Shown in pieces: positions 28,267-44,718 of a stretch of DNA of 64,000 bases; the first letter of the stretch is position 1, and every line of letters starts with the position of its first letter. Below the pieces are notes generated by a model that saw only the letters and a program-made list of their open reading frames with translations, was not told the origin of the DNA and made no database searches. This DNA comes from an uncultured virus (IMG/VR IMGVR_UViG_3300032092_000024) (lineage: Duplodnaviria; Heunggongvirae; Uroviricota; Caudoviricetes): the IMG/VR virus record IMGVR_UViG_3300032092_000024, one strand, 5' to 3'. Both the position numbers and the translations under genes were made by a program.

Positions 28267-28925
28267 GAAACATCGCAATCGGAACTCCGTGCTATGGTGG
28301 CGTCACCGCCAACTACGCCAATAGTTTGGCCGCGTCGGTTAGCCTCTTTGCAAAGTACAACATAAACTTATTCCCAATCCTGCTCTCGCACCAATCAGTG
28401 ATTCAGATGGCCCGCAATAGGATGCTCAAAGAGATTATTATTTCTGACGCAGATGATCTTGTTTGGGTTGACTCTGATATTGGGTGGAAACCTGAGGATC
28501 TTCTTAAACTGTGCCTCCATGAGGAAGATGTGGTTGGGGCTACTTATCGCAAGAAGCTTCCAGACACAACCCACTTTACCCTAGTATTGTTCAAGGATAA
28601 GCAGATACCCGACGAGAGAGGACTGCTTGAGGTGTCCCGCCTTGGCGCCGGATTTTTGCGCATGTCCAAGAAAGCCATGCTCGAAGTATGTTCCACGGCC
28701 TCCGAATACCTTGAAGAGTCGGGCACCATTAAGAATGTATTTGAAGTGGGCGTCCGCAAGGGCGAATTCCTGTCCGAGGACTTCTTTCTTTGCGAGAAGC
28801 TGAAAGACCTAGGTTATAAGATAATGCTCGATACCAAGATTGATCTTACGCATGAGGGCACATTCAGCTACCGTGGGAGCATATCCCATTATCTTGAGTC
28901 CATCAAAATTAAAAAAGAAATTTAA
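28263..28925 (+). CDS. GT-A glycosyltransferase, paralogous to the N-domain of the upstream gene
   Basis: IGTPCYGG, ARN, WVDSD, GAGFL, SEDFF.C, H.G. Confidence 0.75.
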   Translation: MRNIAIGTPCYGGVTANYANSLAASVSLFAKYNINLFPILLSHQSVIQMARNRMLKEIIISDADDLVWVDSDIGWKPEDLLKLCLHEEDVVGATYRKKLPDTTHFTLVLFKDKQIPDERGLLEVSRLGAGFLRMSKKAMLEVCSTASEYLEESGTIKNVFEVGVRKGEFLSEDFFLCEKLKDLGYKIMLDTKIDLTHEGTFSYRGSISHYLESIKIKKEI

Positions 28926-29059
28926 TTTTTAAAATACATATAACCATAAATTGGGTCGCTGGGAGGGTGGGGGGAGGGGGAGTCCGTATAGTGTTATGTA
29001 GAACCCCACTACTAGCCCTATCGGGAAGGGTGGGGGGATGGATAATAGGAGACACTAAA

Positions 29060-29545
29060 ATGAGCAAATCAGAAACCCAAATCAAACCCTTATTCACCTT
29101 TGTCGAAGGCGAATCAGTTGTAACTCGTGAGGCAGGTATTAGCGAAAAGACAGGCAAACCCCTAGCCAAGCGAGAGTACGCCGTAAGCCAAGGCGTGCTG
29201 ATGGCGAACGGCCGACTTGCCCCTTCATCCGCATTAAAGAAGATGACGGATGCCAAGGGTAAGGAATTAGCGACCATTCAGGTTCAGCAGGTAAAGGCGT
29301 TCAGCAACTTTACCCAAGGGAGAATGACCGAAGCGGTTAATCGCATTACGGCGGGCGAGATGCAAGCAACCCAATGCCTTATTAAATTAGAGGAGGACGG
29401 CGTGACTCCTGCGGAATATGTTTTCCGCATTAAGACAGCGGGAGTTGGATTGCAGAAGGCGAAACTGGAAAAGGAATTGACCGACAAGGGACTGGATGCG
29501 GAGACTATCGCACTTGTTCTGAAACGGGCGTTCCCGAAAGCCTAA
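29060..29545 (+). CDS. First early-region protein, unknown function
   Basis: AGGAG SD, ATG 29060 (MSKSETQIK), followed by a terminator. Confidence 0.6.
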   Translation: MSKSETQIKPLFTFVEGESVVTREAGISEKTGKPLAKREYAVSQGVLMANGRLAPSSALKKMTDAKGKELATIQVQQVKAFSNFTQGRMTEAVNRITAGEMQATQCLIKLEEDGVTPAEYVFRIKTAGVGLQKAKLEKELTDKGLDAETIALVLKRAFPKA

Positions 29546-29555
29546 CGGCATAAGC

Positions 29556-29590
29556 GGTGGGGGGAGGGAAACCTCCCCCCATCCTTTTTT
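29556..29590 (+). terminator. Intrinsic terminator
   Basis: GGTGGGGGGAGG-GAAA-CCTCCCCCCATCC then TTTTTT. Confidence 0.85.
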
Positions 29591-29632
29591 ATCAAAAACC
29601 CCAACCCCTTTGAATCAATGATTCTTAGCTTA

Positions 29633-30094
29633 TCAAACATCGATGGCAGGCTTAACGACCGCAGCTTCATCGCTTCGAAGAACTGCGAGGTTAACGATTG
29701 TCTTGCCATTGCTTCCTTGATTCTGCGAAGCCAGTCCCAACGCGGGACGGGCTATGCGGTCAACTTTCTCGAGCACATCGATATGTTCACGCAATTCTTT
29801 TCTGGTTCCAGGCATCTCGGCTTCGAGGACGTCCAAGCTATGGTCGACTTGATTGCTGATACGCGACAGATATCTGGTCTGCTTACTCTCTGCACTTTGT
29901 GCAACACTTCTGTCGATTGCTGTACTAATCTGCACCAAGTTTGCATCCTTTCTCGCAACCCACTTACCTCGTCTGGCTTTACAAGACAAAGTGTTGAGGC
30001 TTATGCCATACGTCGATGCAATGAAGCTTCGAGTCTTACCTCCAACGAAGTCTCTTTCTACTGCTTTCCAGTCTATAGCCAAGGCTTTAGGCAT
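29633..30094 (-). CDS. Putative terminase small subunit (N-terminal HTH)
   Basis: IDWKAVERDF..G.....IA..YGIS..TL...ARRGKW followed by a helical region. Confidence 0.55.
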   Translation of the reverse strand: MPKALAIDWKAVERDFVGGKTRSFIASTYGISLNTLSCKARRGKWVARKDANLVQISTAIDRSVAQSAESKQTRYLSRISNQVDHSLDVLEAEMPGTRKELREHIDVLEKVDRIARPALGLASQNQGSNGKTIVNLAVLRSDEAAVVKPAIDV

Positions 30095-30100
30095 AAGGCT

Positions 30101-30129
30101 AGCTTATCTAGCATTGTGCATAAGGTCAA
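30101..30129 (-). promoter_or_regulatory. Leaderless-type promoter
   Basis: TTGACC-17-TAAGCT-6 nt-ATG. Confidence 0.6.
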
Positions 30130-30188
30130 GGCATCAATGATTCCTCGATTCGAGGATGCACCAACCCTAACCAAAGGAGTAACTACCA

Positions 30189-30761
30189 ATGAGTAACACA
30201 TACTTGCAGGACTTCGGACACCTGCGTAAACAAGCCAATGCACGGGACGTGCATGACCCTATGTCTAGTGCTGGACGATGGGATGACCTTCAACTGGACT
30301 TGCGTAGACCGCATATCCCGCAGGCTCGACGGGCGTCGATGCGTAAGAATCGGACACTCACTGTGGGGAATGTCACTGTCCCCCTGCCCATCGCGGATGC
30401 TGAGTTGAACAAGGCGTTAGGCTTCAAGGCTTGCACGGGCAGTCCCAAGTATGCCTTGAGTAACATGACCAGCGACAAGTGGGAGCATGCACCGCATGAT
30501 GCCAATGTGCGATGGTTGTTGCGCCGTGACCAGCAGGCCGAGGCCAAGATGCTCTCGTCCAACATCAACATCCATCAGACCTATGCCGAGCTGTTCGGTA
30601 GGCTGATTGCCAAGATGTGGTTCAACAATACTCCCAAGGCCCGCGGTGCATACGAACGGCAGTTCCGATTCCTTTGGCAGTATCGCCACTCCTTCAAGAA
30701 GATTCTTGGCAAGGCTGGCTACAGAACCAGAGGCTGGCGTAAGAAAGGGAAGATGCTGTGA
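30189..30761 (+). CDS. Early hypothetical basic protein
   Basis: AAGGAG SD. Confidence 0.55.
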   Translation: MSNTYLQDFGHLRKQANARDVHDPMSSAGRWDDLQLDLRRPHIPQARRASMRKNRTLTVGNVTVPLPIADAELNKALGFKACTGSPKYALSNMTSDKWEHAPHDANVRWLLRRDQQAEAKMLSSNINIHQTYAELFGRLIAKMWFNNTPKARGAYERQFRFLWQYRHSFKKILGKAGYRTRGWRKKGKML

Positions 30762-31009
30762 AGTGTGTCATCTGTGACGACCTTATCGAGGCCGAGCGTA
30801 TCAACCTAGGCTTCTCCAAGTGCAAAGGCTGTGCCTTCCTGCACCCTGAAGAGAAGGTCAAAGGTGCGATGGTCTACTCAGATAAGACTGGCGGGGCAAT
30901 CAATGTGATGAGTCCCGATAGCTTTGACAACTACAAACGAATTTCGCGCAGGGTCGGTCAGCGTTCGGCACTTCGGAATGTGCTGGACAATGGCGGTCGC
31001 TCGCAATAA
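30758..31009 (+). CDS. DksA/TraR-type C4 zinc-finger-like protein
   Basis: CVICDDLIEAER.......CKGCA. Confidence 0.55.
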   Translation: MKCVICDDLIEAERINLGFSKCKGCAFLHPEEKVKGAMVYSDKTGGAINVMSPDSFDNYKRISRRVGQRSALRNVLDNGGRSQ

Positions 31010-31029
31010 CCAAAAGGAGACACAATACA

Positions 31030-31155
31030 ATGCAAACTGAAACGGTAGATTGCCCCGTGTGCAAAGGCACAGGCTTGGATTGGAACAATGTATGGCCGAC
31101 TGGCATGGCCTCGCACTGCGAGGAATGCGATGGCTACGGGGAGGTAAACAAATGA
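31030..31155 (+). CDS. 41-aa DnaJ-type zinc-finger peptide
   Basis: Below the track cutoff. CPVCKGTG...CEECDGYG; AAGGAG SD. Confidence 0.6.
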   Translation: MQTETVDCPVCKGTGLDWNNVWPTGMASHCEECDGYGEVNK

Positions 31156-31301
31156 AGGGCAAGTGGAGAGTAGTGAATGGTGTGGGCAAGGTAATCCGAG
31201 CTGGATTCCTCACCGAACAAATGGCCTACAAGTGGATGCACGAACACAACAACGAACAGTCCAAGAGCTTTCACTTCTGGATTGTGGAGAAAACCCGATG
31301 A
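31152..31301 (+). CDS. Early hypothetical protein
   Basis: GGAGG SD, ATGA coupling. Confidence 0.5.
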   Translation: MKGKWRVVNGVGKVIRAGFLTEQMAYKWMHEHNNEQSKSFHFWIVEKTR

Positions 31302-31663
31302 GCGTGATACTACCAATCGATGCTTACATCCAACTCAACGGCATTGAGTACTACGGAAAGGTGGTCAAGGACGGAACCCGTAACCACCACCCTATGTCCG
31401 AGTATGTCGGCAAGCGTGTGTTTGATGTATCCAAGATTCAGTCAGACGAGTCATGGACTCATTGGTATGTCTTCGAATCCGAGATGCCATTGCCCAACTT
31501 CTATGACTCTACGTTCATTCACTCGCTGGACTATGCGAGCTGGATAGATGTGGACAGGGATGACTGCGACGCACCTGGACAGATGTTCAGACGCAGAGCT
31601 TACATCTCAAAGATGGGTCAGTGGAAGATGGTCATCACCCAAAGCGGAGGGAGGGACATATGA
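31298..31663 (+). CDS. Early hypothetical protein
   Basis: ATGA coupling. Confidence 0.5.
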   Translation: MSVILPIDAYIQLNGIEYYGKVVKDGTRNHHPMSEYVGKRVFDVSKIQSDESWTHWYVFESEMPLPNFYDSTFIHSLDYASWIDVDRDDCDAPGQMFRRRAYISKMGQWKMVITQSGGRDI

Positions 31664-31944
31664 GAGGTAGGTCTATCGACCCCAAGTATGTCATGACCAA
31701 TGCAGTCCAAGCTCACTATGGGCGAAGGCTGACTAGGAAAGACTGGGAAAGGAACGTCAAGATGGCCAGACGCACGAGCCGAACGACCCTCGCAATCAAG
31801 CGGAGCGAGGGCTTGGATTATCAGTATGCGTTGACTGATATTCATCGGAGCATCATCAAGAAAGTTATGATGACACCCGATGAAGCTTACAACCGAAACA
31901 AGGTAACCAAGAAGCTTGGGCTTGCTTGGGTTATGTGCGGATGA
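31660..31944 (+). CDS. Early hypothetical protein
   Basis: ATGA coupling. Confidence 0.45.
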   Translation: MRGRSIDPKYVMTNAVQAHYGRRLTRKDWERNVKMARRTSRTTLAIKRSEGLDYQYALTDIHRSIIKKVMMTPDEAYNRNKVTKKLGLAWVMCG

Positions 31945-32026
31945 GTGTCGAGCGAGTTAAATTGTGGATTTGGCTGGCTTGCCAGACTCCATCACCCAAG
32001 CTTTGGCACGGAAACAACTAGTCGAG

Positions 32027-32082
32027 TAGACCAACTGACCTGCTGCCCGCGGGCAGGTCAGAAGTCTGGCCGATAGGCTGGA
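32027..32082 (+). repeat. Structured intergenic motif, copy 1
   Basis: TAGAC, 9-bp hairpin, then AGTCTGGCCGATAGGCTGGA. Confidence 0.75.
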
Positions 32083-32123
32083 GAAAAAGATAGTTAACCT
32101 TAACAAAGAAAGGAACATTATAT

Positions 32124-32363
32124 ATGTTCTTTACAAATCGAAAAGACGGTGAAGTTACCATTGAAGTGAAGCAGGGCGTATCCTCGGACGGGAGTCTGAA
32201 CGGCCGCTTCTACACAGCCAGCCTCAACGGCTGGACTGGCGAAGGTTTGACAGAGCAGGATGCTGTGCGTGACCTCGACCAGAGTCGGGCAGAAGCTTTG
32301 ACCAAGCTTCATCACAACAACCGCGCATTCGGAACGCGTCTAAGCTTCGAGGTGGTCTCGTGA
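32124..32363 (+). CDS. Early hypothetical protein
   Basis: GAAAGGA SD. Confidence 0.55.
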   Translation: MFFTNRKDGEVTIEVKQGVSSDGSLNGRFYTASLNGWTGEGLTEQDAVRDLDQSRAEALTKLHHNNRAFGTRLSFEVVS

Positions 32364-32496
32364 GTTGGGCGGAGTTCTTTGAGGTGATGACAGTCATCAT
32401 CCAACTTGTCTGTGCGTTCCTAGTTATCCCAGCCTGCGTCGTGGCGGCTGTGATTCTAATCAACCGCCTTCTCAAGATGGCGTTGGAGGAAATCAG

Positions 32497-32850
32497 TTGA
32501 AACCTGGGGATAAGCTCTGGGTCGATGCCCAAATGATTGAGATCTTGAAGGGTCACAATCTTGGGCGGAAGTTTCGCCTCAACACTGGTGTGGCTGAGGT
32601 GGCTGGCGACATCTACCCCGACGACACCATTGTGCCCAATGAACTGAACGTAAAGATTGGTGACGCTCGATGGACAAAGCTTGCCTTGGGTGAGCTGGAA
32701 CGTCCGTGGCGTTACCCAACCTTCCGCCGTTTGCTTGCGGTTATCCGCTCGTGGACTGGAGACTGGTTGTTCCGTGCTCGCAAGCTCGAGCAGGGAATCG
32801 ACATCGAAGAAACAATCAACAATGAGGAGAACGACAATGATCAAAGTTAA
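32497..32850 (+). CDS. Early hypothetical protein
   Basis: GGAGG SD, TTG start. Confidence 0.45.
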   Translation: MKPGDKLWVDAQMIEILKGHNLGRKFRLNTGVAEVAGDIYPDDTIVPNELNVKIGDARWTKLALGELERPWRYPTFRRLLAVIRSWTGDWLFRARKLEQGIDIEETINNEENDNDQS

Positions 32851-33022
32851 GCTTGGTTGGGGGTGGATGCGTTTCCACTTCTTCGGGAACAGATTCAACA
32901 ATGCCATCGTGGCTAACGTGGAGTTTCGGCCTCTCGGCTTTGAACTCTACCGCGGTAGTCATTCGGTAATGATCTACTTGGAGCTTGTCATCGGCACGCT
33001 GATGATCAAGTTGAGCAAATGA
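32837..33022 (+). CDS. Early hypothetical protein
   Basis: GAGGAG SD. Confidence 0.45.
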   Translation: MIKVKLGWGWMRFHFFGNRFNNAIVANVEFRPLGFELYRGSHSVMIYLELVIGTLMIKLSK

Positions 33023-33405
33023 GTTACCCCATTGAAGTCGTGGCCGAGAAGGGAGCGCTCCAGCGCAGGCTTGGGCTGACTCCTATCGACCGAACCACAA
33101 CCGCAGACTTCCCGAAAGGGAAGATAACTATTAGAACAAACAGAGTTCCAACCTTATCAGAGGGCGGAGCTTATGCGTTCTACTACACCGACCACGAAGG
33201 TGATCGGTCAGTGTGTCACGTTGGGCCCGTGTACCGATACACAAGTCATGGGAGAACTGCCAGTGATGAGATGTATTATCACTTCAATTCTGGTTGCTTG
33301 AGGAAAACTCAACTCGATGCGTTTGTCACAACCATCAAGGCCATCGAAGCCAAAGTCGATGCCCTTATGAGAAAGGAATCCAATGGCTACCAAGACGAAA
33401 TCTAG
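33019..33405 (+). CDS. Early hypothetical protein
   Basis: ATGA coupling. Confidence 0.5.
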   Translation: MSYPIEVVAEKGALQRRLGLTPIDRTTTADFPKGKITIRTNRVPTLSEGGAYAFYYTDHEGDRSVCHVGPVYRYTSHGRTASDEMYYHFNSGCLRKTQLDAFVTTIKAIEAKVDALMRKESNGYQDEI

Positions 33406-33718
33406 TAAGAAGAATCTAACCAAAGACCAGCTTAATAGACTCAAGGTGCTGGACTTCATCGACATCTACGCTGACGACGAGCACAAGGAAAACATCATCC
33501 TACTCGATGGCTTGGACAAAGCTTTCCTCGGGCTTTCCCATCGAGATGGACAACACGGAACACAAGTGGCGGTGTATGGAATCTTTTCCTGCATCCACAC
33601 ACTTCAACTCGACAACAAGTGGAGTTGGGATGAAGCTGAAGAATACTTCCACTTCAATACCCGCTGGGCTTATGTTGGCGAGTATACCCCGATGTTCATC
33701 GAGGAGATGGTGCGATGA
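33383..33718 (+). CDS. Conserved hypothetical phage protein
   Basis: DGLD.AFLG...VAVY...EA.EYF.FN...AYVGE.TP pattern. Confidence 0.6.
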   Translation: MATKTKSSKKNLTKDQLNRLKVLDFIDIYADDEHKENIILLDGLDKAFLGLSHRDGQHGTQVAVYGIFSCIHTLQLDNKWSWDEAEEYFHFNTRWAYVGEYTPMFIEEMVR

Positions 33719-33963
33719 CTGCCAAGCTGACACCTCAAGAGATTAGGCAAGGCGACACCGTGTGGTGGCGCGGAAGCTTTGGCAACGAGGGATGGCAAGA
33801 GGCGAAAGTCAAACGCATCGAACTCGTTCGTCCAGGTGAGAAAGAAAATGGACTCCTTGTGCCTTGGGTGCCTACAACCATTATCGAGAACTGTGTTTTC
33901 GATTTGGACAATGGGCATTGGGCATATGGATATCAAATCAAACCAGTGGAGGAAACACTATGA
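33715..33963 (+). CDS. Early hypothetical protein (SH3-like)
   Basis: GDTVWWRGSFG...DNGHWAYGYQI. Confidence 0.55.
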   Translation: MTAKLTPQEIRQGDTVWWRGSFGNEGWQEAKVKRIELVRPGEKENGLLVPWVPTTIIENCVFDLDNGHWAYGYQIKPVEETL

Positions 33964-34343
33964 GCGGATTAGCTAAAGAACCAGATAACTTCACAATCCC
34001 AAAGAAACTGATGGACGAGGCGGTAGATCGTGAGCTTGCAAAACTAAAGAGAATAGAGAAGAGTACTGACGCTTGGGTTAAGCAGTGCAAGAAAGACGGT
34101 ATAATTGTTCTTAAACGACGATATGTCGATGAGAATAGATGCCTCATCAATCGCATTGTTGATGTCAGTTCTCTTGAGATTGACGGTGTCGATTATCGGG
34201 ACGCTCCAGACTTCTGCGATGCCTTCTTCAGTGCTGGCCAATATGAGGACGGCACTGTGATGGGCGACGACGAACTTAACGAGCTAGCCGACGAGCACCC
34301 CGATATTCTGGCAGAGAAGATCTACCACCACGCGATGCCCTAA
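33960..34343 (+). CDS. Early acidic hypothetical protein
   Basis: IDGVD.RD.PDFCDAF motif; GGAGG SD. Confidence 0.55.
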   Translation: MSGLAKEPDNFTIPKKLMDEAVDRELAKLKRIEKSTDAWVKQCKKDGIIVLKRRYVDENRCLINRIVDVSSLEIDGVDYRDAPDFCDAFFSAGQYEDGTVMGDDELNELADEHPDILAEKIYHHAMP

Positions 34344-34454
34344 AGGAGGACATATGACAGAAGCTCAACAGAAAGAAATTTTGGCTAGAATCACCATTGA
34401 TGAATGGCTAGGCAAGATGGAAAACGAACGAAAACTAAACGAAAGGAAGACATC

Positions 34455-34757
34455 ATGAAAAAGAAAAAAGCAAAGGTAACAGAGAGAGTTATGACGATCG
34501 ACAGGAAAGACGGAAACCTCAACGGAGTTCCATTTATTCAGTTCCTTGTAGCGATGCAAGGTCTGGAAGCTTTGAATCGTGGAATGATGTTGACTCGAGT
34601 CGCAACCCCAAGTCGCTGTATGGAAATCATATCGCAGATAACGGGCAATAAATACAAACGAACCGACAGGAACAAAGCGTTGTACGATGCGGAAGTAATC
34701 ATGCATGCGCTTCGTGAAGAGAAGAAACAACTAGCTCAGGACGCGGCACTCGCATGA
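34455..34757 (+). CDS. Early hypothetical protein
   Basis: GAAAGGA SD. Confidence 0.5.
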   Translation: MKKKKAKVTERVMTIDRKDGNLNGVPFIQFLVAMQGLEALNRGMMLTRVATPSRCMEIISQITGNKYKRTDRNKALYDAEVIMHALREEKKQLAQDAALA

Positions 34758-35080
34758 GAATCGAAGTCGAGAAGGATGATGTTAAGTTCGAATACGACGG
34801 CAAGAAGTATTCGGTAACTGGCACAGCCATCCACAATACCGAGAAGGAAGACATCGGTATTGGTTCTTATGAGTTCTGGGGTTCGCGTGGTTATGACAGC
34901 CAGATTGTCAACCAAAGCGAGTTCTCGGAATGTGAGTTCGATAGCTTGGCAATCTATCCAGACGAGGGGATGGAAGAAGTTCCAGAACCTTCTAAGGAAC
35001 TTGTCGAGGCTGCGCAGGAAGCTCTGTATTCCGCGACCTACGAAATCGCGGAAGAACGGGCTGTCGAGTTAAGCGACTAA
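34754..35080 (+). CDS. Early highly acidic protein
   Basis: D/E-rich; GIGSYEFWG motif. Confidence 0.55.
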   Translation: MRIEVEKDDVKFEYDGKKYSVTGTAIHNTEKEDIGIGSYEFWGSRGYDSQIVNQSEFSECEFDSLAIYPDEGMEEVPEPSKELVEAAQEALYSATYEIAEERAVELSD

Positions 35081-35094
35081 GAAAGGAGGTTTGT

Positions 35095-35286: not shown

Positions 35287-35336
35287 CAGACCCTCGTGGC
35301 CTCGCAAGGGCCACGCAGTCTGGCCGATAGGCTGGA
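35287..35336 (+). repeat. Structured intergenic motif, copy 2
   Basis: CAGAC, a different hairpin, then the identical AGTCTGGCCGATAGGCTGGA. Confidence 0.75.
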
Positions 35337-35368
35337 ACCAAACGAAAACAAAAATGAAAGGACACAAT

Positions 35369-35888: not shown

Positions 35889-38211
35889 AAACACGCCAGT
35901 ATCAAGCGGGGTTACCGACACGATCGACTACAAGATCGATGTGTCCAATCTCGGTCATATCGCCAGTATCCTACGCAAAGCTTACTCTGACCCGATCAGA
36001 GCGGTTGTGCGTGAATATGGCACCAATGCCTGCGAGGGTCACATCCTCAATGGTAAAACCAACAAGCCCATCCAAGTCTCGCTTCCGACTGGTATGAAGC
36101 CAGTCTTCACGATTCGTGACTTCGGCCCTGGACTTGGCAAAGAGAAGTTCCAAGAGTTGTTCTGCTCGTATGGTGGTAGCGACAAGCGGGCAAGCAACGC
36201 CTTCACGGGCTGTCTTGGTATCGGTTGCAAATCGTATGGTGCCTATACGGATGCCATCACGGTAACCGATTACAACGGAGTTACCCCCCACAAAGACGGA
36301 GTCAAGCGTATCTGGAATTGTCACATCGATGAGAGTGAGGTGGGCAAGGCATCGCTGTTAAGCGAGACCAAGACCAACGAACCCTCTGGTGTTGAGATCT
36401 CGATTCCAGTTCGGCCTCAAGACATTAGTAGATTCCGCGAAACTGCGATGCAAGTCTATCGTGTCTTTGATGTCCGTCCCGACATCGTTAACCTATCGCC
36501 AGAAGAGAAGAAAGCATATGCCACTCAGACATACAAGGATGGCATCATCAAAGGAATCAACTGGTCTTTCAATGGCGAAGGTAACAGCTGGCTCCAAATG
36601 GGTCTTGTGCTTTATCCGCTCAAGTCCGACTTCTCTGGCTCACCAGTAATCAAGCAGTTGATTGACGCTGGAGTCTACGTGAGGGTCGATCTTGGCGATG
36701 TCCAAGTCGCTCCGTCTCGTGAGGACTTGCAGTATTCGCAGAAGACAATCCAAGGCTTGGTCAAGCATCTCAATCCAGTCATTGACTCGATGGGGTCGAC
36801 CTTGCTTGCCGACATTCAAGCGGCTCCAGATTACTTCCAAGCTCACTTGATCTTGAGGAAGTTCACTGGCACTGGTGGATATAGTTCTTCCAGCTTCCGT
36901 GAAGGCATCGTCAAGAAGCTGAAAGGCAAGCTGAAGTGGAGGGGAATCGATATGCATGAGGATAATAGAATTCCTTTGTGTGCATCACCACTTGCGAAAG
37001 ACCAAACTGAAACCGAGTTACTTAAGTCTCACGGTATCAGCGTCATGCGTCTAAGCAAGCGAAGCTGGGGTAAGGCTAAGTTCAATGTTGATCGTGAGGT
37101 CGACGAACTGATGGTTAGCAAAGACTCAATCGTAATGGTCAACGATACTGGCACTGGTTCAGGTGAAGCTCGCGTTCGTCACTGGCTGATAAACGGCGGG
37201 CCATCTGGAGCAGATGTAACTATCATCAACTACAAAAACGGTGGCAAGGAGTTCCTTAACAAGACTCTCCCGTGGTTTGTAACGATGACATTCCAACAGG
37301 TGTCGTCTCTGCCCGTGCCACCACCGAAACAGAAAGGCGTAGATGCCGACGGAGTTGAGATTGAATACGACAAGAATGTCAAGCACACCAAGGGGAATGT
37401 GTTTGGCTTGCTTGTCAAGTATCAACGCGCAGACAAGCGTAGTGACTATTGGGGAATCTCCGCAGCACCTACGACTGGCAAGAAAGTCTACGTAACACTC
37501 GACCAATTCAAGTGGTCAATGCCTGGTAAGGACTTGGAGATGGAGGAGTATTACCCTCTGTATCGAGCAAGAGATTACTTGAAGGCAATCGGCTATTGTG
37601 ATCAAGTCTATGGCGTGAAGGAAGCTGATATCGCCAAGAAGGTTGATGCAACTTGGACTAAATTACAGGATGCAATCGAGGAGGGGACAAGAGCCTTCAT
37701 CAAGGCTAACCCTGACAAGGCTCAGAAGATTGCTGATCGTTATGCTGTCTTGAGTTTCTTCAACGCTCGAAGGTCATACGACAGCGATCGGCTTAGGAAA
37801 GAAGGCTGCTTCTTTGAGCGATGCTCGCTTGGTCGTTGGGCAAATTCCAAGATTGGTCCACTCAAAGACGTCAAATCCGACAGCCCATTCCGAATCTTTA
37901 TGGATAAGGTTATGGAGATGGTTGGAGGATGCTTAGAAGAAGGAGATAAAGACTTGCCAGTCTGGCTTGAAGAGCCGAGGAATACTTGGGCTCTTGGCCG
38001 ATCAAACACCGATGATAAGAAGAGTGTATATCAACAACTCAAAGCGTTGTTGCCTAAACCTTCTTATGATCTAAAAGTCGAGGGAACTAAAATAGCTTCG
38101 AGGTATCCATTACTTTGCCACAGTAACTGGCAATCAGATGTAATGGAATATCCAACCGAACACACTGTCGAGTATGTGCATCTTGTAGATGCAGCTCGCA
38201 AAACAAAATAA
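35869..38211 (+). CDS. rIIA: RIIA-like protein (N-terminal GHKL ATPase)
   Basis: YSDPIRAVVREY..NA...H, IRDFGPGL, S.KR, G.LGIG.KS; followed by rIIB. Confidence 0.85.
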   Translation: MIITSSRNTPVSSGVTDTIDYKIDVSNLGHIASILRKAYSDPIRAVVREYGTNACEGHILNGKTNKPIQVSLPTGMKPVFTIRDFGPGLGKEKFQELFCSYGGSDKRASNAFTGCLGIGCKSYGAYTDAITVTDYNGVTPHKDGVKRIWNCHIDESEVGKASLLSETKTNEPSGVEISIPVRPQDISRFRETAMQVYRVFDVRPDIVNLSPEEKKAYATQTYKDGIIKGINWSFNGEGNSWLQMGLVLYPLKSDFSGSPVIKQLIDAGVYVRVDLGDVQVAPSREDLQYSQKTIQGLVKHLNPVIDSMGSTLLADIQAAPDYFQAHLILRKFTGTGGYSSSSFREGIVKKLKGKLKWRGIDMHEDNRIPLCASPLAKDQTETELLKSHGISVMRLSKRSWGKAKFNVDREVDELMVSKDSIVMVNDTGTGSGEARVRHWLINGGPSGADVTIINYKNGGKEFLNKTLPWFVTMTFQQVSSLPVPPPKQKGVDADGVEIEYDKNVKHTKGNVFGLLVKYQRADKRSDYWGISAAPTTGKKVYVTLDQFKWSMPGKDLEMEEYYPLYRARDYLKAIGYCDQVYGVKEADIAKKVDATWTKLQDAIEEGTRAFIKANPDKAQKIADRYAVLSFFNARRSYDSDRLRKEGCFFERCSLGRWANSKIGPLKDVKSDSPFRIFMDKVMEMVGGCLEEGDKDLPVWLEEPRNTWALGRSNTDDKKSVYQQLKALLPKPSYDLKVEGTKIASRYPLLCHSNWQSDVMEYPTEHTVEYVHLVDAARKTK

Positions 38212-38233
38212 AAAACGAAAGGACACAGTAAGT

Positions 38234-39085
38234 ATGAACTACATCATAACTGACGAAACAATAACAGCGGTCATCAACGGGAAGTCTTACACTCTCCGTC
38301 GTGACCACGCAAATGCAAAGATGGTAATTAACGCGATCGCAGAAGGTCGCGCGGAGGGTGACATCGAGGAATTGATGGACATCACCAAGGCACTCAATGC
38401 GTACCTTGGAAACTCCGTTGAAGTCAAAGACGGTTCGGTGTATCACCGCGGTGAGATCGTTGACGAGCGTATTGCCAGGCGAATCCTCGCCTTTATGGAG
38501 GAGAGTCTACCAGTGGAACCGATGACTCGGTTCTTGGAGAATCTCTACAACAACCCGAGCCACAATAGTCGCGCTCAACTCTACCAGTTCTTGGAGCACA
38601 AGAACATGCCTCTTACTGAAGATGGCTGTTTCTTGGCCTACAAGTCGGTTGACCAAGACTATATGGACCACCACACTGGCAAGTTCTCTAACCGAGTCGG
38701 CCAGGTGTTGAGCATCGCTCGTCGCAGTGTGGACGACAATCCCGAGAACGGATGTTCTTACGGATTCCACGCTGGCTCGCTCGAGTACGCCAGCAACTTC
38801 GGTGGTGGCGATCGTCGGGTCGTGATCGTCAAGATCAACCCCGAGGATGTGGTATCGGTGCCCAATGACTGCGGGTTCCAGAAGCTTCGTACTTCCAAGT
38901 ACGAAGTTGTTGCGGACTACACGGGGCCGTTGCCCAAGACGTACGCAGAAACGTACGACTCCACCGAGGACGACATCTACGATGAGGAAGATGTTGAGAC
39001 TGATGAAACTGACAGCGATGACAGCCTTGTCACGGCCATCCGTGCCGCGGCTCATCAGTTGCTTGACGCAGTATCGAATCGCTAA
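38234..39085 (+). CDS. rIIB: RIIB-like protein
   Basis: DGCFLAYK.V, CSYGFH.G...Y, VKINP.DVVSVP.D...KLR..KYEVV. Confidence 0.9.
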   Translation: MNYIITDETITAVINGKSYTLRRDHANAKMVINAIAEGRAEGDIEELMDITKALNAYLGNSVEVKDGSVYHRGEIVDERIARRILAFMEESLPVEPMTRFLENLYNNPSHNSRAQLYQFLEHKNMPLTEDGCFLAYKSVDQDYMDHHTGKFSNRVGQVLSIARRSVDDNPENGCSYGFHAGSLEYASNFGGGDRRVVIVKINPEDVVSVPNDCGFQKLRTSKYEVVADYTGPLPKTYAETYDSTEDDIYDEEDVETDETDSDDSLVTAIRAAAHQLLDAVSNR

Positions 39086-39091
39086 CCATTC

Positions 39092-39120
39092 GGGGCGGGT
39101 GGGCAAATCCCACTCGCCCC
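39092..39120 (+). other. Strong intergenic hairpin without U-tract
   Basis: GGGGCGGGTGGG-CAAAT-CCCACTCGCCCC after the rIIB stop. Confidence 0.55.
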
Positions 39121-39135
39121 ATCTGAAAGGAAATT

Positions 39136-39375
39136 ATGATCTACACGAAAAAAGAATTGAGAGACAGGGTTGCTGCTATGGACTCGAAGGAAATCTGCTA
39201 CGCCTTGATTTGGACGCAAGATGAATTCGATGGTTATTTCAATGACCAACAGATTAGCAAAAGTGATTGGGAGTCCGCGCTTAGTAGCATTGATTCCGAA
39301 AGCGAAGAACAATCTGTCAAAGAAAATATCGAAATGGAAATCCAAAACCTAATTGATGAAAAGGAGACTGCATGA
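39136..39375 (+). CDS. Early acidic hypothetical protein
   Basis: GAAAGGA SD. Confidence 0.5.
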   Translation: MIYTKKELRDRVAAMDSKEICYALIWTQDEFDGYFNDQQISKSDWESALSSIDSESEEQSVKENIEMEIQNLIDEKETA

Positions 39376-39647
39376 TTGAAGTCGAATATAAAGGTAAACA
39401 AGCCAAAAATATAGCGGGGACTAAGTCCCCCTATGGATTAGGCTGGCACAAAGAGGATGCGTCCATCATCGAATCATTGAAGCTTCGAGGCGGAGATGCC
39501 ACGATACTTCTACCCGAATGGTGCGAGGCAACTGGATTGGACAGCAATAGCAATCTGGTTCGCAAGGAACGATTCGAAGGTAAGAAACCCTGGAGTCAAA
39601 AAGATGAGAACAAAAAAATCTACACTCGTGAGCTCAGACTTGCTTAA
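39372..39647 (+). CDS. Early hypothetical protein
   Basis: AAGGAG SD, ATGA coupling. Confidence 0.45.
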   Translation: MIEVEYKGKQAKNIAGTKSPYGLGWHKEDASIIESLKLRGGDATILLPEWCEATGLDSNSNLVRKERFEGKKPWSQKDENKKIYTRELRLA

Positions 39648-40470
39648 ACTTAATCGCGGTAACGCGAAGCTGGGGCGAGACATCTGGACGTTCAGCCTAC
39701 CCGCAGGGTTCTCCTGCCCAGGCGCGCTGGAGTGTTTGTCCAAAGCCAATCGAGAGACGGGCAAGATCACGGACGGTGCCGACACCAAGTTCCGTTGCTT
39801 TGCCGCATCCGACGAGGCTCAGTACAAGAACACGCGGTTGCAGAGGTGGCACAACTTCGAGTTGCTGAAAGGCAAATCGACAGCCGAGATGTCCGAACTG
39901 ATTCAAGCAAGTCTCCCAAGACAAGCTGGTATCATTCGGGTTCACGTATCGGGTGACTTCTTCAACCAGTTCTACTTCGATGCGTGGATGCATGTGGCCA
40001 GATGCCAGCCACTCCGCACCTTCTACGCCTATACCAAAAGCTTACCCTTCTGGGTTAGACGTATTGGGGACATCCCAAAGAACTTCGCCCTTAACGCAAG
40101 TCGAGGCGGGGCACACGATGAACTGATCGCCAAGCACGACCTTAAGTATGCAGAGGTTGTGTACAGCTACGAAGAAGCGAAGGCCAAGAGACTGGAGATT
40201 GACCACGACGACAGCCATGCTTACAAGTCTGGCAAGCCGTTCGCGTTGCTCATCCACGGGACACAGCCCGCGGGTAGCATCGCGGCTAAGTCGTTGTCTG
40301 CCCTTCGCAAGATCGGGTGGACAGGTTACAGCAGGAAGGTGGCGTTGGCCTTGATGATTGCCAATCTATGCATTGACGCAGTTCCCTATGAGTTCTGGCC
40401 CGTGTGGGCCAGGCCCGGGAATGAGTGGATAATCAAGCATCGAGTTCTGACTTGTCAGAACCACGCGTGA
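39604..40470 (+). CDS. Gp88-like (radical-SAM-related) protein
   Basis: GNAKL, FSLPAG.SCP...C...CFA, RVHVSGDF, YAYTK. Start uncertain. Confidence 0.7.
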   Translation: MRTKKSTLVSSDLLKLNRGNAKLGRDIWTFSLPAGFSCPGALECLSKANRETGKITDGADTKFRCFAASDEAQYKNTRLQRWHNFELLKGKSTAEMSELIQASLPRQAGIIRVHVSGDFFNQFYFDAWMHVARCQPLRTFYAYTKSLPFWVRRIGDIPKNFALNASRGGAHDELIAKHDLKYAEVVYSYEEAKAKRLEIDHDDSHAYKSGKPFALLIHGTQPAGSIAAKSLSALRKIGWTGYSRKVALALMIANLCIDAVPYEFWPVWARPGNEWIIKHRVLTCQNHA

Positions 40471-40479
40471 AAGGAATAT

Positions 40480-40698
40480 ATGAGTCTAATAAATAGAGCA
40501 TCAGTTAAGCGGTCGGCTCTGGACATGGCGAATGCCAAGTTCAAGGAGCGTAATAAGACGAGGCTGGAAATGGGGCTTGCCCCTACGAAGTCTGCCCCGT
40601 CGAGAGTTAGTAGTGAGTTCATCGATACCTTCGAAGCCAAGGTCATTGGCTTGTTGGGTTCTATGGTTCACGAACACAAGTCAGGAGCAACACTATGA
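40480..40698 (+). CDS. Putative histone-fold protein
   Basis: LIN...VK..AL ... RVS.EFID.....V..L....V......TL pattern. Confidence 0.45.
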   Translation: MSLINRASVKRSALDMANAKFKERNKTRLEMGLAPTKSAPSRVSSEFIDTFEAKVIGLLGSMVHEHKSGATL

Positions 40699-40855
40699 GT
40701 AAAACAAAAACAATAACACCAAGGATGGTTGAGGATTGGTTAATAGAAATGGATGATGTCTATTACATTTTAGCCGATATAGCCAATGGCAAAATCAAAC
40801 CATCAGAGTTAAAGTCAGACATTTCAATCTATATAGATAACGAAAGGAGCTCACG

Positions 40856-41080
40856 ATGAATTGTTATTGTATTACAAAACCAACGGAACAAAAGTTCTTG
40901 TCAATCGACGAGAAGTGGGTGGACTTTATCACGGGTATCCGTAATGACTCCATCCGAGGCTATACCTCTGAGGAGATGGAAGCCTTGAACAACGATGCAA
41001 CGAAGCATGGAGGCGAGGTGCGACAGCATCCGTCTCCCGACGGAGTCACACTCCCCTTGTTTTATGACTGGGGTACGTGA
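40856..41080 (+). CDS. Early hypothetical protein
   Basis: AAGGAG SD. Confidence 0.45.
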   Translation: MNCYCITKPTEQKFLSIDEKWVDFITGIRNDSIRGYTSEEMEALNNDATKHGGEVRQHPSPDGVTLPLFYDWGT

Positions 41081-41702
41081 AGTATTTGAGGGACTGAAGT
41101 CCCGAGAGGTCAGCCGTTACGTCAACTACTGGGACAAGATTAAGCCCAAGTCCCGCAGTGACGAGTGGCGCTTCTGGGTCTTCTCGATTCTCGCAGCCAA
41201 CTTCGGTTGGAAGCAGAACGTGAAGGCATTTAACGCAATCAAAGACCGCGACTCGTGGAAGTCCGATATGGGTAAGCTACAGTTCGAGCTGTACAAAACC
41301 AAGACTGGACTGTGGAGGACGAAAGCCGTGAGCATCTGGAAGTTTGACCAGATGTTCCAGGCCAAGCCCCACATCTTCGAGCGCTATGCCAACGAGCCGT
41401 TGACGCAATACCGTGATAGGATTGCGGACAACGTCCCAGGATTGGCGATTGCAAAGTCGAGCTTCTATGTGGAGATGAAGCACCACGAAGAGTCAGACGT
41501 TGTCTGTCTCGATCGTCGTGTGCTGAAGTCCATCCACAAGAGGGAAAGAACAGTGAACAGGACTGATTATCTCGCGCTTGAGAACGAGTGGCAGACCTGC
41601 TCAAAGGAATACGGTATCCCAGTGGCTACCGCCAGGTTCATCTGGTGGGATAAGTTGCAGGGGTATAAAAATAGTCGGTACTGGAGTGAGGCATTAGAAT
41701 GA
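41064..41702 (+). CDS. HhH-GPD DNA glycosylase, Ogg2-like
   Basis: FSILAAN, HhH-like NVPGLAIAKSS, VCLDRR, YL.LE, FIWW. Confidence 0.6.
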   Translation: MTGVREVFEGLKSREVSRYVNYWDKIKPKSRSDEWRFWVFSILAANFGWKQNVKAFNAIKDRDSWKSDMGKLQFELYKTKTGLWRTKAVSIWKFDQMFQAKPHIFERYANEPLTQYRDRIADNVPGLAIAKSSFYVEMKHHEESDVVCLDRRVLKSIHKRERTVNRTDYLALENEWQTCSKEYGIPVATARFIWWDKLQGYKNSRYWSEALE

Positions 41703-41917
41703 CAACAACAATCAATGGTTCATTTGTCTGGGGCGCAGACGATAGTCTCTTTGAGATTAAGTTTGACGCAGATGTGGACAAACAAGAGAAGGTGGTTACT
41801 TCGATGCATTTGCATCTGAAGCCAGATCACTTAGATAGAATCCTGCAAGACGTATATAAGACAGGCGAACGAGAAGCCCTTCGGTTAGCGTTGAAGCAGG
41901 AGGCTAATGAAAGTTAA
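41699..41917 (+). CDS. Early hypothetical protein
   Basis: ATGA coupling. Confidence 0.45.
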   Translation: MTTTINGSFVWGADDSLFEIKFDADVDKQEKVVTSMHLHLKPDHLDRILQDVYKTGEREALRLALKQEANES

Positions 41918-42111
41918 TAAAGTAATTCGATTCATCATATTGATTCTATATACTGTGTTCCTTGTGAACGGAGTATTGGTGACTGGAACGGGTGTATTCT
42001 ATGGCGTCTGCTATTTATATACCTCAACGATTAAGAAGGTGTGTAACAAAATTAACCCGATGATTCGGGTCTAAAAGTTCTCACCTATCCACGTTTCGAA
42101 GTCATCTAATT

Positions 42112-42221
42112 TATTCCCGAGTTCCCCAGGGGTGATGATACCGAGAGAACAAGCACGCGCAAATTGTAAAATATCCGTGACTTGTTCTGGAAGTATCGCC
42201 AACTCTGGGGACTCGGGAATA
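42112..42221. other. 110-nt imperfect long hairpin
   Basis: TATTCCCGAG(T)TCCCCAG / CTGGGGACTCGGGAATA outer arms; AGAACAAG-CACG / CGTG-A-CTTGTTCT inner arms. Confidence 0.65.
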
Positions 42222-42336
42222 TTTTTTGTCACAATTTTATCCTTCTACCTATAAGTATACACACAGTTTTAATAATTGAAAGCGTGACGAGGCACGTAAG
42301 CCAAATAATATCACGCTTTGTGTTCCTCATTTTCCC

Positions 42337-42381
42337 ATTTTGTCCCAGCCATATTGACTTGGCAAGCCCGCCAGTCAGCAT
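42337..42381. promoter_or_regulatory. Overlapping divergent leaderless-type promoters
   Basis: Plus: TTGACT-16-CAGCAT-6-GTG(42388). Minus: TTGCCA-17-CAAAAT-6-ATG(42330). Confidence 0.5.
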
Positions 42382-42387
42382 TGAATT

Positions 42388-42648
42388 GTGCCAAAGAAGC
42401 TAGCAGAAGCAAAGTTTAACGAACTTTCCGAACAGTTCCTCCGTGTATTACTCGCCGCAGCTGCGGTCGATGGTAAATCGGAAGAGCTGGTTATTACCCG
42501 CAAGGCTTTCCATGATCTCCATCAGAAATTAAAGGATGGCTACAATCCAGAGATAGATGTTTGGTTTGAAGACAATGAGCTTCACATTGCTTTAGCCTGG
42601 AGCGAAGTTCCGATTATCGGTTTTAGAAAAATTCGTGGCCAAAAATAA
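42388..42648 (+). CDS. Hypothetical protein
   Basis: ORF with its own promoter. Confidence 0.5.
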   Translation: MPKKLAEAKFNELSEQFLRVLLAAAAVDGKSEELVITRKAFHDLHQKLKDGYNPEIDVWFEDNELHIALAWSEVPIIGFRKIRGQK

Positions 42649-42756
42649 AAAGAAAAAGGTTAAGAGCTTGATCGATCACTCGCATCGACCACGCCAGGGC
42701 CTGCTCGACAAGGTTGCCAAGCTGGCGTTATACCACAAGAATTAGTGCCTGGGGTA

Positions 42757-42897
42757 TTAATACTTACCCAATCCCCGACCCGTGTTAGAAACCTTAGGCA
42801 TTACGTAAGGCTTTTTCTTTTCAATCTTAAGGGAAGGCGACTTGTCAGTCGGCATCTTTGCGTTCTTTTGGTTTAAGTTGATAGAGTAGTTCTTCAT
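42757..42897 (-). CDS. Small basic protein ending GLGKY
   Basis: ATG 42897 directly after the upstream stop. Confidence 0.5.
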   Translation of the reverse strand: MKNYSINLNQKNAKMPTDKSPSLKIEKKKPYVMPKVSNTGRGLGKY

Positions 42898-42898
42898 A

Positions 42899-43114
42899 TT
42901 ATTTACCTTTCGATTTACCGGCTGCGCGGGTAGATTGCTCTGCCACAATAGAGTCATATTCAGCCATCCTCTTTCTGGCCGTGCCGGCGGGAGCTCTCCC
43001 CATCTGCTCATCTAGCTCAGCATATTCAGCTGCTCGCTGAGCCGCTATTTTACGCTTTTCGTACTCAGCATATAGTTCGCTGGTATTAGCAGATACATTT
43101 TTTCCTAGAGGCAT
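42899..43114 (-). CDS. Small protein starting MPLGK
   Basis: AGGAG SD; MPLGKNVSANTSELY. Confidence 0.6.
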   Translation of the reverse strand: MPLGKNVSANTSELYAEYEKRKIAAQRAAEYAELDEQMGRAPAGTARKRMAEYDSIVAEQSTRAAGKSKGK

Positions 43115-43126
43115 ATGATTAAACTC

Positions 43127-44485
43127 CTAGTCTTTTCGTCCCGTATACATGGTTTGGTTATAGGCTTCAACACCTGGCCGAATTCCAAGTTTTCCTCTGA
43201 GAGCAACAACTTTTTCAGCTGCTTTACGTGCAGCTTTTTTATCAATTTGTTGGGCGCGGCCAAATCTAGTCGTACTAAACTTTCTAAAATCTGCTTCCGC
43301 TTGGGCGAGATCTGATCGGGTTCGAGCGAGATCTGCTTTTGCTTTGTCCTCAGCTGTGAATCCTCTCCGACTCCCTCCAGTGTTCGGTGCGGTTGGTCGT
43401 GTAGTATCGGGAGTAACGCCAGCTGAAGCGAGAAGATTGTCGACTTCGGCAGCTGGGTTATAAGCGTCAGCTGAAGTATAAGTAGGAACTTCTACTGGTA
43501 AAACAGGTTGTTTCTGGGCTTGCGTATAAGGTTGTACACTATCCTCTGCAACTTGTGTTTGCTCAATAGGAGTAGGAGCTGGTTCGTTACCCGCCATTGG
43601 AGTTGGTTCAGGTGCGGCAGTAACAGGGACAGTCGGAGTTATGGGGGCAGCAGGAGTTATTGAAGCAGGTGTTTCAGCTACCTTTGCTGGCGCAAAAGTA
43701 AACGAAGGCCCTAGCTTAAGTCTCTCGCGCATTGCGGCTCGTTGTGAACTCGTCAACTCATTGGAGCGGGTATAGCGACCAGTCGCAGAATCCCACGCCC
43801 ATCCATTTTCGGCCGCTTGTGCTGTGCGTTCACGCTTGTCCAAAGCTTTATTAATAGTTTGTATTGCGTTGTTAGTCGCCATTTGCGATTTTTCTTTTGG
43901 AGAAGCCATGGCCCATTGGCTCAATGACCCTGGGGCCTGGTTATAAGCTTCAATTCGTCGTGCCTGTTCCTCTGCTGTGGACGCAGGGCGATTGGTCATA
44001 ATAGGGCGACCAAAATAATCTTTTCCAAGTTCGGTAAGAGTGGAGGGGGCGTTGCTTTCATTTCTCCATCCCTCCATTTTACGCATGAAATCTTTTGCCC
44101 TATACTCAGCATCATCTTGAGCCATCTGTTCCATTTTCTGTTTGCTAATTGCTTCTTTTTCTTTTTGTTTGACTGATGCTTCTGCCATTTTTTCTTCAGC
44201 AGATTTTGTTCTAAATAAGTCAAGCAATATATTAAGTCTTCTTGTTTTCTCTTCTTCTCTAGACTGTCTTTCTTTCTCTTTTGCGTCACTCTCTACTTTA
44301 TTAGCTATATCTTGTGCTGTTTTTTCTCCGGACGACAAAGCCCGGTTTTCTCCAAATTTTGAAGCCTCGTCAAGAAGCTCTTTATTTGCTGGCGAATAGA
44401 CTCCTCCGAAAAAAGGATTGTCTAAATACTCCATCGGGGTATTAAAACCTCTTGTAGCCGAGGAGGGAAAAAGGTAATTTGCCAT
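43127..44485 (-). CDS. Low-complexity internal virion/ejection-like protein
   Basis: 452 aa, A/E/K/P/T-rich; promoter TTGACC-17-TAATAT at 44521-44493. Confidence 0.5.
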   Translation of the reverse strand: MANYLFPSSATRGFNTPMEYLDNPFFGGVYSPANKELLDEASKFGENRALSSGEKTAQDIANKVESDAKEKERQSREEEKTRRLNILLDLFRTKSAEEKMAEASVKQKEKEAISKQKMEQMAQDDAEYRAKDFMRKMEGWRNESNAPSTLTELGKDYFGRPIMTNRPASTAEEQARRIEAYNQAPGSLSQWAMASPKEKSQMATNNAIQTINKALDKRERTAQAAENGWAWDSATGRYTRSNELTSSQRAAMRERLKLGPSFTFAPAKVAETPASITPAAPITPTVPVTAAPEPTPMAGNEPAPTPIEQTQVAEDSVQPYTQAQKQPVLPVEVPTYTSADAYNPAAEVDNLLASAGVTPDTTRPTAPNTGGSRRGFTAEDKAKADLARTRSDLAQAEADFRKFSTTRFGRAQQIDKKAARKAAEKVVALRGKLGIRPGVEAYNQTMYTGRKD

Positions 44486-44517
44486 GGTTTTTATATTACA
44501 AATTTAGGTTGAGTAGG

Positions 44518-44718
44518 TCAAGGCTTCTTCTCTAGAATGTCCTCAACGCCGTCCGAATCTTTGTCCTTAAAGTTTGAGGGATCGCGGGTAAAGATCTTCT
44601 TGGCTAACATGTACTTCTCTTCGGCAGACATCTCTGTCCACGATTCGGTCTTACCCCTTGGCTTCCAGAGGATTAGGATTACTACTATCCCAACAAAAAA
44701 TATAACGGGCCAGAACAT
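44518..44718 (-). CDS. Small membrane-anchored protein
   Basis: N-terminal TM; C-terminal DKDSDGVED Ca-binding-like loop. Confidence 0.5.
   Translation of the reverse strand: MFWPVIFFVGIVVILILWKPRGKTESWTEMSAEEKYMLAKKIFTRDPSNFKDKDSDGVEDILEKKP

Follow-up and report, generated by a model that had tools for sequence, protein, structure and literature searches.

The stretch of DNA considered here, hereafter the window, comprises 64,000 nucleotides (nt) of an uncultured virus of the Caudoviricetes (IMG/VR record IMGVR_UViG_3300032092_000024) and is part of a ~69 kb phage genome with a typical tailed-phage gene set. Within it lies a long block, the zone, from which the five-base word GGATC and its complement GATCC are missing and in which several other short words are scarce. 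Leftward late genes occupy positions 1-12263 and include a tail-fibre-like gene, an endolysin, a portal-size gene of 769 amino acids (aa) and the large terminase subunit. Rightward genes (12361-42648) encode a SNF2-type helicase, a DUF2800/PD-(D/E)XK exonuclease, a family A DNA polymerase, a DUF5906 primase-like protein and a trypsin/PDZ protease, followed by a variable island with a glycosyltransferase. The core zone ends where the rightward genes converge with leftward late genes, and a second leftward block extends from 43127 to the window end. The main features are the following.

10530 to 12263, minus strand: large terminase subunit
28497 to 44578, no strand: GGATC/GATCC-free interval, flanked by sites at 28496 and 44579
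28926 to 42700, plus strand: core avoidance zone, with ~30 mostly orphan small genes, rIIA, rIIB, a GP88-family gene and an Ogg-HhH-like gene
35869 to 38211, plus strand: rIIA homologue in the zone (phrog_612, E 7.6e-87)
38189 to 39085, plus strand: rIIB homologue in the zone (phrog_609, E 5.3e-71)

The gene content of the zone is early-like: nearly all of its genes are orphans and they lie on one strand together with rIIA and rIIB.

The GGATC-free interval

The original prediction held that GGATC/GATCC is absent from 28501-44578. Exact counting on both strands bears this out, with 0 sites in the interval and 78 in the rest of the window. The GGATC sites that flank it lie at 28496 and 44579, and the neighbouring GATCC sites at 25872 and 46941. 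A maximal-order Markov model of the interval itself predicts 14.7 sites (p 4e-7), and the rate outside predicts 26.2 (p 4e-12). The gap measures 16,083 nt. When 78 sites are placed randomly in 64 kb, the longest gap is 3,979 nt on average and the largest obtained in 20,000 trials was 10,996 nt. The absence also stands out when codons are shuffled synonymously (1000 shuffles of 18 zone genes, 11,529 nt in all, and of 24 outside genes): the shuffled zone genes contain 18.2 +/- 3.9 GGATC with a minimum of 5, and none of the 1000 shuffles is as low as the 0 observed. Outside the zone the word is only mildly low, with 78 sites against 103 in the Markov model and 62 against 88.7 in the shuffles of the outside genes. 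GGATC is thus far below the Markov expectation within the block and not equally low genome-wide, so that the observation stands.

With regard to the exact word, the interval contains 39 GATC, 56 GGAT and 56 ATCC, somewhat more than the ~27 GATC and ~50 GGAT first estimated; one outside GGATC site, placed at 23451 in the same count, lies at 23450. The claim that no GATC of the interval has a 5' G or a 3' C proved right: from 28926 onward this holds for all of the zone GATC sites (0 of 38 so flanked, compared with 76 of 198 outside; Fisher p 1.6e-7). Since these 38 GATC and five RGATCY sites are kept in the zone, the avoided word is the 5-mer itself; it is an asymmetric 5-mer depleted in both orientations, rather than GATC, RGATCY or GGATCC. 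Its designation as an AlwI-type word agrees with an excerpt of PMC11074287, which gives the recognition site of Nt.AlwI as GGATCNNNN^N.

Further depleted words, polarity and relatives

The depletion is not restricted to GGATC, as the block is also poor in CCGG, GGWCC, GATC, CCWGG, GTAC and CATG. In 28501-44578 there are 6 CCGG sites, compared with 33.8 in the Markov model and 59 by the outside rate, and the zone has 2 GGWCC sites against 19.8 in the Markov model. GATC is observed 39 times in the interval against 87, CATG 31 times against 66 and GTAC 20 times against 41; CCWGG is likewise low there by counts, the word being outside the shuffle test. In the shuffles of the zone genes, 29.9 CCGG are obtained for 3 observed, 16.3 GGWCC for 2, 46.1 GATC for 31, 32.4 CATG for 21 and 33.2 GTAC for 19. 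Values as low as those observed were reached in at most 3 of 1000 shuffles for each of these words and for GGATC, and in none for GGATC, CCGG and GGWCC. Depletion in the zone operates at the DNA level, through synonymous sites, and does not follow from protein or codon composition. In the shuffles of the outside genes there is no deficit of CCGG, GATC or CATG (CCGG 134 against 143.9, not significant). The original prediction had named GGATC and CCGG as the two avoided motifs; GGATC is indeed selected against in the same block from which CCGG is missing, but two motifs are too few, as at least six or seven words are depleted. The longest site-free stretches, besides that of GGATC, are:

28649 to 40414, no strand: CCGG-free stretch; later sites at 40415, 42918, 42984, 44328 and 44342, then normal density
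28843 to 32540, no strand: GATC-free first 3.6 kb of the zone (site positions)
28184 to 37854, no strand: GGWCC-free stretch; last site at 28183, next at 37855

Other words deviate as well. The zone has a slightly higher G+C content (49.4% vs 47.1%) and fewer A/T-rich words. An excess of TCGA in the zone was set aside, codon usage accounting for all of it (77 observed, 76.3 in the shuffles), and an excess of GCATC is probably a by-product of the avoidance of GAT/ATC beside C/G. CTGCAG is avoided genome-wide (6.3 sites expected in the window and none present; ~58 expected over six genomes and 2 present), and AGGCCT, CACGTG and CGTACG are also low genome-wide in the window and in the related genomes G001-G005. 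Such genome-wide under-representation holds only for 6-mers such as CTGCAG, not for CCGG or GGATC. Since CTGCAG-type words are deficient everywhere and the words of 4-5 bp in the block, rare words are removed genome-wide and frequent ones only here.

Near-identical DNA is found in lake and freshwater metagenomes of 13 studies, and 55 loci of IMG/VR carry a terminase with 87-100% identity to that of the window, among them near-complete contigs of 67-71 kb. The relatives compared here are five whole contigs, G001-G005, and three contigs covered in part, L056, L061 and L062. G001-G004 are 83-92% identical to the window in the common parts and G005 is ~70% identical. All seven close relatives examined (G001-G004, L056, L061 and L062) have the same site-free block, and the longest GGATC-free and CCGG-free stretches of G001-G004 measure 8.6-17 kb and lie in the homologous place. 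In an unbiased scan of 4-6-mers, ranked by the weaker of two p-values, CCGG came first and GGATC second in the window, G001, G003 and G004, and these words came first and fourth in G002. Counts in the 15.6 kb zone of each relative are as follows.

G001: GGATC 1 vs 36 expected; CCGG 0 vs 55 expected
G002: GGATC 5 vs 36 expected; CCGG 10 vs 66 expected
G003: GGATC 0 vs 36 expected; CCGG 0 vs 52 expected
G004: GGATC 2 vs 28 expected; CCGG 2 vs 67 expected

G005 presents a two-fold depletion in the same place. Furthermore, the zone parts without a blastn match to the window zone (3.7-4.6 kb per relative) are almost site-free too. In G003 these unmatched parts have 0 GGATC against 10.5 expected and 0 CCGG against 14.9, and in G001 they have 1 GGATC against 10.1 and 0 CCGG against 15.5. 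Because unmatched parts are also site-free, the avoidance, as judged from these sequence comparisons, tracks position and not ancestry, and it is kept in the relatives; these are close kin, and the unmatched cassettes may be common among the relatives themselves. With regard to cultured and more distant phages, neither a nucleotide match of the zone nor a tblastn match of the terminase was found in the phage collection, rIIA has only distant matches (24-34% identity), and searches with the rIIA of G005 and with an rIIA alignment returned known contigs only and no more distant relatives.

The block is polar. When five genomes are summed in bins of 2 kb counted from a conserved non-coding element at the left edge of the zone (28915-28983, described below), the words return at different distances.

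GGATC per bin: 3, 0, 2, 0, 0, 0, 1, 7 (expected 20.6 per bin)
CCGG per bin: 0, 2, 0, 0, 0, 2, 4, 13 (expected 38.1)
GGWCC per bin: 1, 2, 0, 0, 6, 10, 7, 6 (expected 9.4)
GATC per bin: 18, 14, then normal (expected 42.8)

Left of the element the bins have normal counts, and the depletion begins abruptly at the element, extending for ~4 kb in the case of GATC, ~8-10 kb for GGWCC, CCWGG and GTAC, and ~14-16 kb for CCGG and GGATC. The order of return in the window is GATC at ~3.6 kb, GGWCC at ~9 kb, CCGG at ~11.5-14 kb and GGATC at ~15.6 kb; within 28926-44578, all five remaining CCGG sites fall in the last 27% and no GATC occurs in the first 23%. CTAG behaves in another manner, a CTAG-free stretch of 6.5 kb (35886-42399) covering rIIA, rIIB and the next genes while the first half of the zone is normal, and this pattern is the same in the summed profile of the relatives.

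The right edge is less sharply placed. GGATC is missing up to 44578, as predicted, but the functional edge is more likely to lie at ~42.7-42.9 kb, because CCGG density is normal again at ~42.9 kb, just beyond the end of the rightward operon at 42648, and the final 1.9 kb without GGATC is within chance (outside, there is one site per ~820 nt). A search for repeats at 42-46 kb found nothing notable and no repeat-rich structure.

The boundary element and the genes around the zone

The left edge of the zone coincides with an AT-rich and G-run element (28915-28983), which is non-coding and marks the start of the zone in every genome, with one or two copies of the G-rich word GGGTGGGGG in each. In the relatives the site-free block starts within ~100-400 nt of the element, and the last sites before it lie 74-274 nt upstream. 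A search of IMG/VR with the element pattern gave 9 matches in 8 contigs (one contig with two), all of them relatives. The features at this edge are:

28915 to 28940, plus strand: AT-rich element, left zone edge; aligned and conserved in six whole genomes, including the ~70%-identical G005; unique in the window
28958 to 29037, plus strand: G-run region with two exact GGGTGGGGG copies (28965 and 29028), just 5' of the first zone gene
29060 to 29545, plus strand: first zone gene, 161 aa, basic, with an AGGAGA ribosome-binding site
29556 to 29593, plus strand: terminator-like structure, a strong G/C hairpin with a T run behind it, directly 3' of the first zone gene
24198 to 24513, no strand: seven exact GGGTGGGGG copies, clustered and facing both ways, accompanied by a (TG)n run and an AT-rich stretch; 4.4 kb to the left of the zone

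In a scan of 27.5-46.5 kb, the counts of promoters and terminators equalled the shuffle expectation. The layout of the cluster at 24198-24513, which lies between the replication genes and the variable island, is the same in G001-G005, and the cluster may serve as an origin, as a regulatory region or as a recombination boundary.

The first zone gene has no family, atlas or fold match (Foldseek, E <= 0.001). Its AlphaFold model has a mean predicted local distance difference test score (pLDDT) of 65.6, and no more than 8 close homologues make up its family in a set of 5.8 billion clustered proteins. This gene is common to the window and the distant G005, and a different gene stands there in G001-G004; the swap points to cassette exchange at the very start of the zone.

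Two small zone proteins are very acidic, one of 108 aa (34754-35080, pI 4.1) and one of 79 aa (39136-39375, pI 4.1), and have no family match; their charge would suit DNA mimics. The variable island (24568-28925), situated between the two G-rich elements, is without a nucleotide match in most relatives and comprises a leftward orphan gene of 356 aa, a phrog_3704 gene labelled 'ferredoxin' and two paralogous phrog_1574 domains, one of them fused to a family 2 glycosyltransferase.

To the right of the zone, in the second leftward block, two further features may bear on the entry of the genome.

45792 to 46644, minus strand: two small genes, matching domains internal to large proteins of the virion ('minor head protein and DNA pilot'; glucosaminidase)
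46667 to 59533, minus strand: 4288-aa polyvalent protein with an AAA_34 P-loop/helicase module and ART-PolyVal

The glucosaminidase and pilot-like genes are candidates for ejection proteins. The 4288-aa protein exceeds the thresholds for ART-PolyVal (32.6 bits, cut-off 31.2) and AAA_34 (28.9 bits, cut-off 27) and has the features of polyvalent proteins, being very large and multidomain with conflict-related domains. A search for a hidden methyltransferase or polymerase gave no further Pfam domain and no PDB sequence match. The concept of polyvalent proteins that are packaged and injected is set out in an excerpt of PMC5512222, and the 4288-aa protein is a candidate both for packaging and injection and for the protection of later-entering DNA. 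The giant open reading frame is found in all relatives (3831-4547 aa). The window version is ~30% identical to those of G001-G004, though their terminases are 91-97% identical, and 41-44% identical to that of G005; the ART-PolyVal region (~aa 2344-2922) is unaligned to G001-G004. Judged by this divergence, it looks like a fast-evolving or exchanged conflict protein.

Proposed entry order and host restriction

The explanation we favour, with slightly better than even confidence, is that host restriction selects on a rightward early operon that enters the cell first, from a fixed end near 28.93 kb. The early operon (~28.93-42.7 kb, with the orphan small genes, rIIA and rIIB) would be the DNA first exposed to the host cytoplasm, where host restriction enzymes would select against CCGG, GGATC, GGWCC, GATC, CCWGG, GTAC and CATG. 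The rest of the genome would enter, or become vulnerable, after early or injected functions have neutralised restriction, and would be shielded until then, most simply by staying in the capsid. Entry would proceed from a fixed end at the AT-rich/G-run element, rightward with transcription, as in T7. That this segment enters first is inferred from the genes it contains, the direction in which they run, its sharp left edge and the relaxation towards the right; entry rightward from ~28.93 kb is favoured because the left edge is sharp, the motifs relax rightward and the genes run rightward. Restriction enzymes are presumably the agent, and the rest of the genome is presumably protected. More tentatively, the nested, left-anchored return of the words may be a record of slow, polar, transcription-coupled entry from the element, with the enzymes neutralised at different times.

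Several observations weigh against this explanation. The left edge yielded no sigma-70-like promoter, and none of the zone proteins matched a known anti-restriction family or fold. The deficit of CTAG is limited to the second half of the zone (from rIIA to the Ogg-like gene), which misfits a simple nested gradient. The relatives, being 83-92% identical, are not independent replicates. As for clues to the host, no tRNA and no Rfam family were found, nor was a terminase relative in 185,579 species genomes. Ends at 28.93 kb would also put the replication genes last in entry, which would be unusual. Furthermore, no physical end was found at the element: in 0 of its 9 IMG/VR matches does it stand at a contig end, all of them lying inside large contigs. 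A contig of one public run (X1) bridges 26811-30040 across the left edge, and relatives assemble as circles with overlaps at differing places. Bridging and circles fit a collapsed terminal repeat or, equally, headful packaging, in which case there would be no first segment.

Other approaches to the genome ends gave little. The contigs assembled from four of the 19 public runs revealed neither positions at which molecules start or stop nor an informative joint. One relative, 81.7 kb long and with a duplication of 13.8 kb at its ends, was considered as a case of terminal repeat and rejected, as its two rIIA copies differ (92% and 98% identical to that of the window); we read it as a wrap-around in a two-strain assembly. 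For the packaging type, the terminase gave weak PHROG matches only and no PDB sequence match. The linearisation points of G001-G005 all fall at positions equivalent to 27.4-42.4 kb of the window, in or just left of the zone (~23% of the genome), and this clustering could be due to strain variation that breaks assemblies or to something physical.

Among the alternatives, a T5-like injection in two steps, running the opposite way, is the least unlikely, but we consider it improbable. The genome end would lie near 43-44.6 kb, entry would run leftward and stop at the 28.93 kb element, and early proteins would then let the remaining DNA enter. The sharpest edge of the zone does coincide with a unique, highly conserved, repeat-bearing non-coding element, and the T5 stop signal is also conserved, repeat-rich and untranslated (10.1101/866236); the protection reaches Type II sites, as in T5. 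This direction of entry is at odds with the polarity of the block, since avoidance is weakest on the right, which would enter first and stay exposed longest, and the genes would face against the entry direction. Moreover, the 42-46 kb region lacks a repeat-rich structure and no genome end was found.

Still less probable is a mosaic history, in which the block would have come from, or been exchanged with, phages that avoid these words genome-wide for another host. The slightly higher G+C content and the fewer A/T-rich words of the zone agree with such an origin, as does the swapping of cassettes between relatives, the first zone gene being present in G005 and not in G001-G004. Nonetheless, the similarity of the conserved zone parts to the relatives (83-93%) equals that of the remaining genome. 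Sites are also missing from the unmatched cassettes of four relatives, the edge lies on the same conserved element in all genomes and the depletion is graded within the block, and a one-off inheritance predicts none of these three.

It seems very unlikely that the words are missing because early site-specific nuclease(s) of the phage itself cut host DNA at them during the time when the early block alone has entered, which would oblige this block to lack them. In favour of this idea, the same hypothesis exists for T5, where Davison proposed, as cited in 10.1101/866236, an early nuclease as the reason for the site-free segment in connection with A1, and many zone genes have no known function. 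At least six words with differing extents are hard to pin on one or two nucleases, no nuclease family was detected in the zone, and the sole small PD-(D/E)XK gene lies in the late region (981-1373). Lastly, chance or base and codon composition, for which the somewhat different composition of the zone and the codon-derived TCGA excess might have spoken, is refuted as the maker of the gap by the codon shuffles (0 of 1000 reach 0 GGATC) and the random placements (0 of 20,000 above 10,996 nt, against a gap of 16,083 nt), and the pattern is replicated in the relatives.

The favoured explanation, first entry of the early operon under host restriction, has known counterparts. In T5, cutting by EcoRI is confined to sites of the first-step-transfer DNA (10.1101/866236), the leading segment alone confers Type II sensitivity and a pre-early function shields later DNA (10.1101/866236; PMC12455610). 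The two phages are alike in that a conserved non-coding element marks the edge of the block. They differ in several respects: the block here measures 14-16 kb and ~20-23% of the genome, compared with 7.9% in T5; the T5 genes A1, A2 and dmp have no detected counterpart here, nor was a large terminal repeat seen; and many motifs with graded extents are involved. In T5 the injection has two steps; for the phage studied here, such a course is hypothetical.

In the T7-like Murciavirus, a Type I motif (system Mme2I) matters only in the early-injected region (PMC12455610). The likeness to the present case consists in restriction selection on first-injected DNA and a variable leading region with early functions, and in T7-like phages entry and transcription have the same direction (PMC12455610). 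There, a single Type I motif was identified by experiment; here, several Type II/IIS-type words emerge from sequence statistics, in a phage that is not of the Autographiviridae and has no match to a phage RNA polymerase or Ocr. With regard to genome-wide avoidance, phages have fewer short palindromic or Type II words than expected (Rusinov et al. 2018, PMC6286503), and CTGCAG behaves alike here; in contrast, CCGG, GATC and CATG are normal outside the zone, which makes their avoidance sub-genomic. The leading regions of conjugative plasmids, the DNA transferred first, are also poor in restriction targets and rich in anti-defence genes (PMC12455610), whereas the genome discussed here is that of a tailed phage with a terminase, a portal-size gene, an endolysin and tail genes.

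The principle is therefore already known, and the present case is a clear new example of it. Its new aspects are the several Type II/IIS-type words, the share of 20-23% of the genome, the conserved boundary element and the graded extent; a limited search of the open-access literature found no description of a nested multi-motif pattern. The setting is also new, namely an uncultured freshwater phage lineage without cultured relatives. To our knowledge, positional restriction avoidance has been demonstrated by experiment in a few cultured phages only (T5 and, recently, the T7-like Murciavirus). In the present case a strong signature of this kind, spread over multiple motifs, is conserved across a widespread lineage of uncultured freshwater phages.

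We know of no identification, even in T5, of the function that protects broadly against Type II enzymes, and the present phage offers two sets of candidates for it, its orphan early genes on one side and its fast-evolving 4288-aa polyvalent protein on the other. A fingerprint of the host should rest on the whole word set and not on two words. The sequence predicts where entry starts, which genes are expressed while restriction is still in force and which words the host enzymes recognise. If the tentative reading of the nested word return as a record of polar entry is true, the polarity of entry, the length of the first segment and the restriction repertoire of the host would be readable from the sequence of an uncultured phage.

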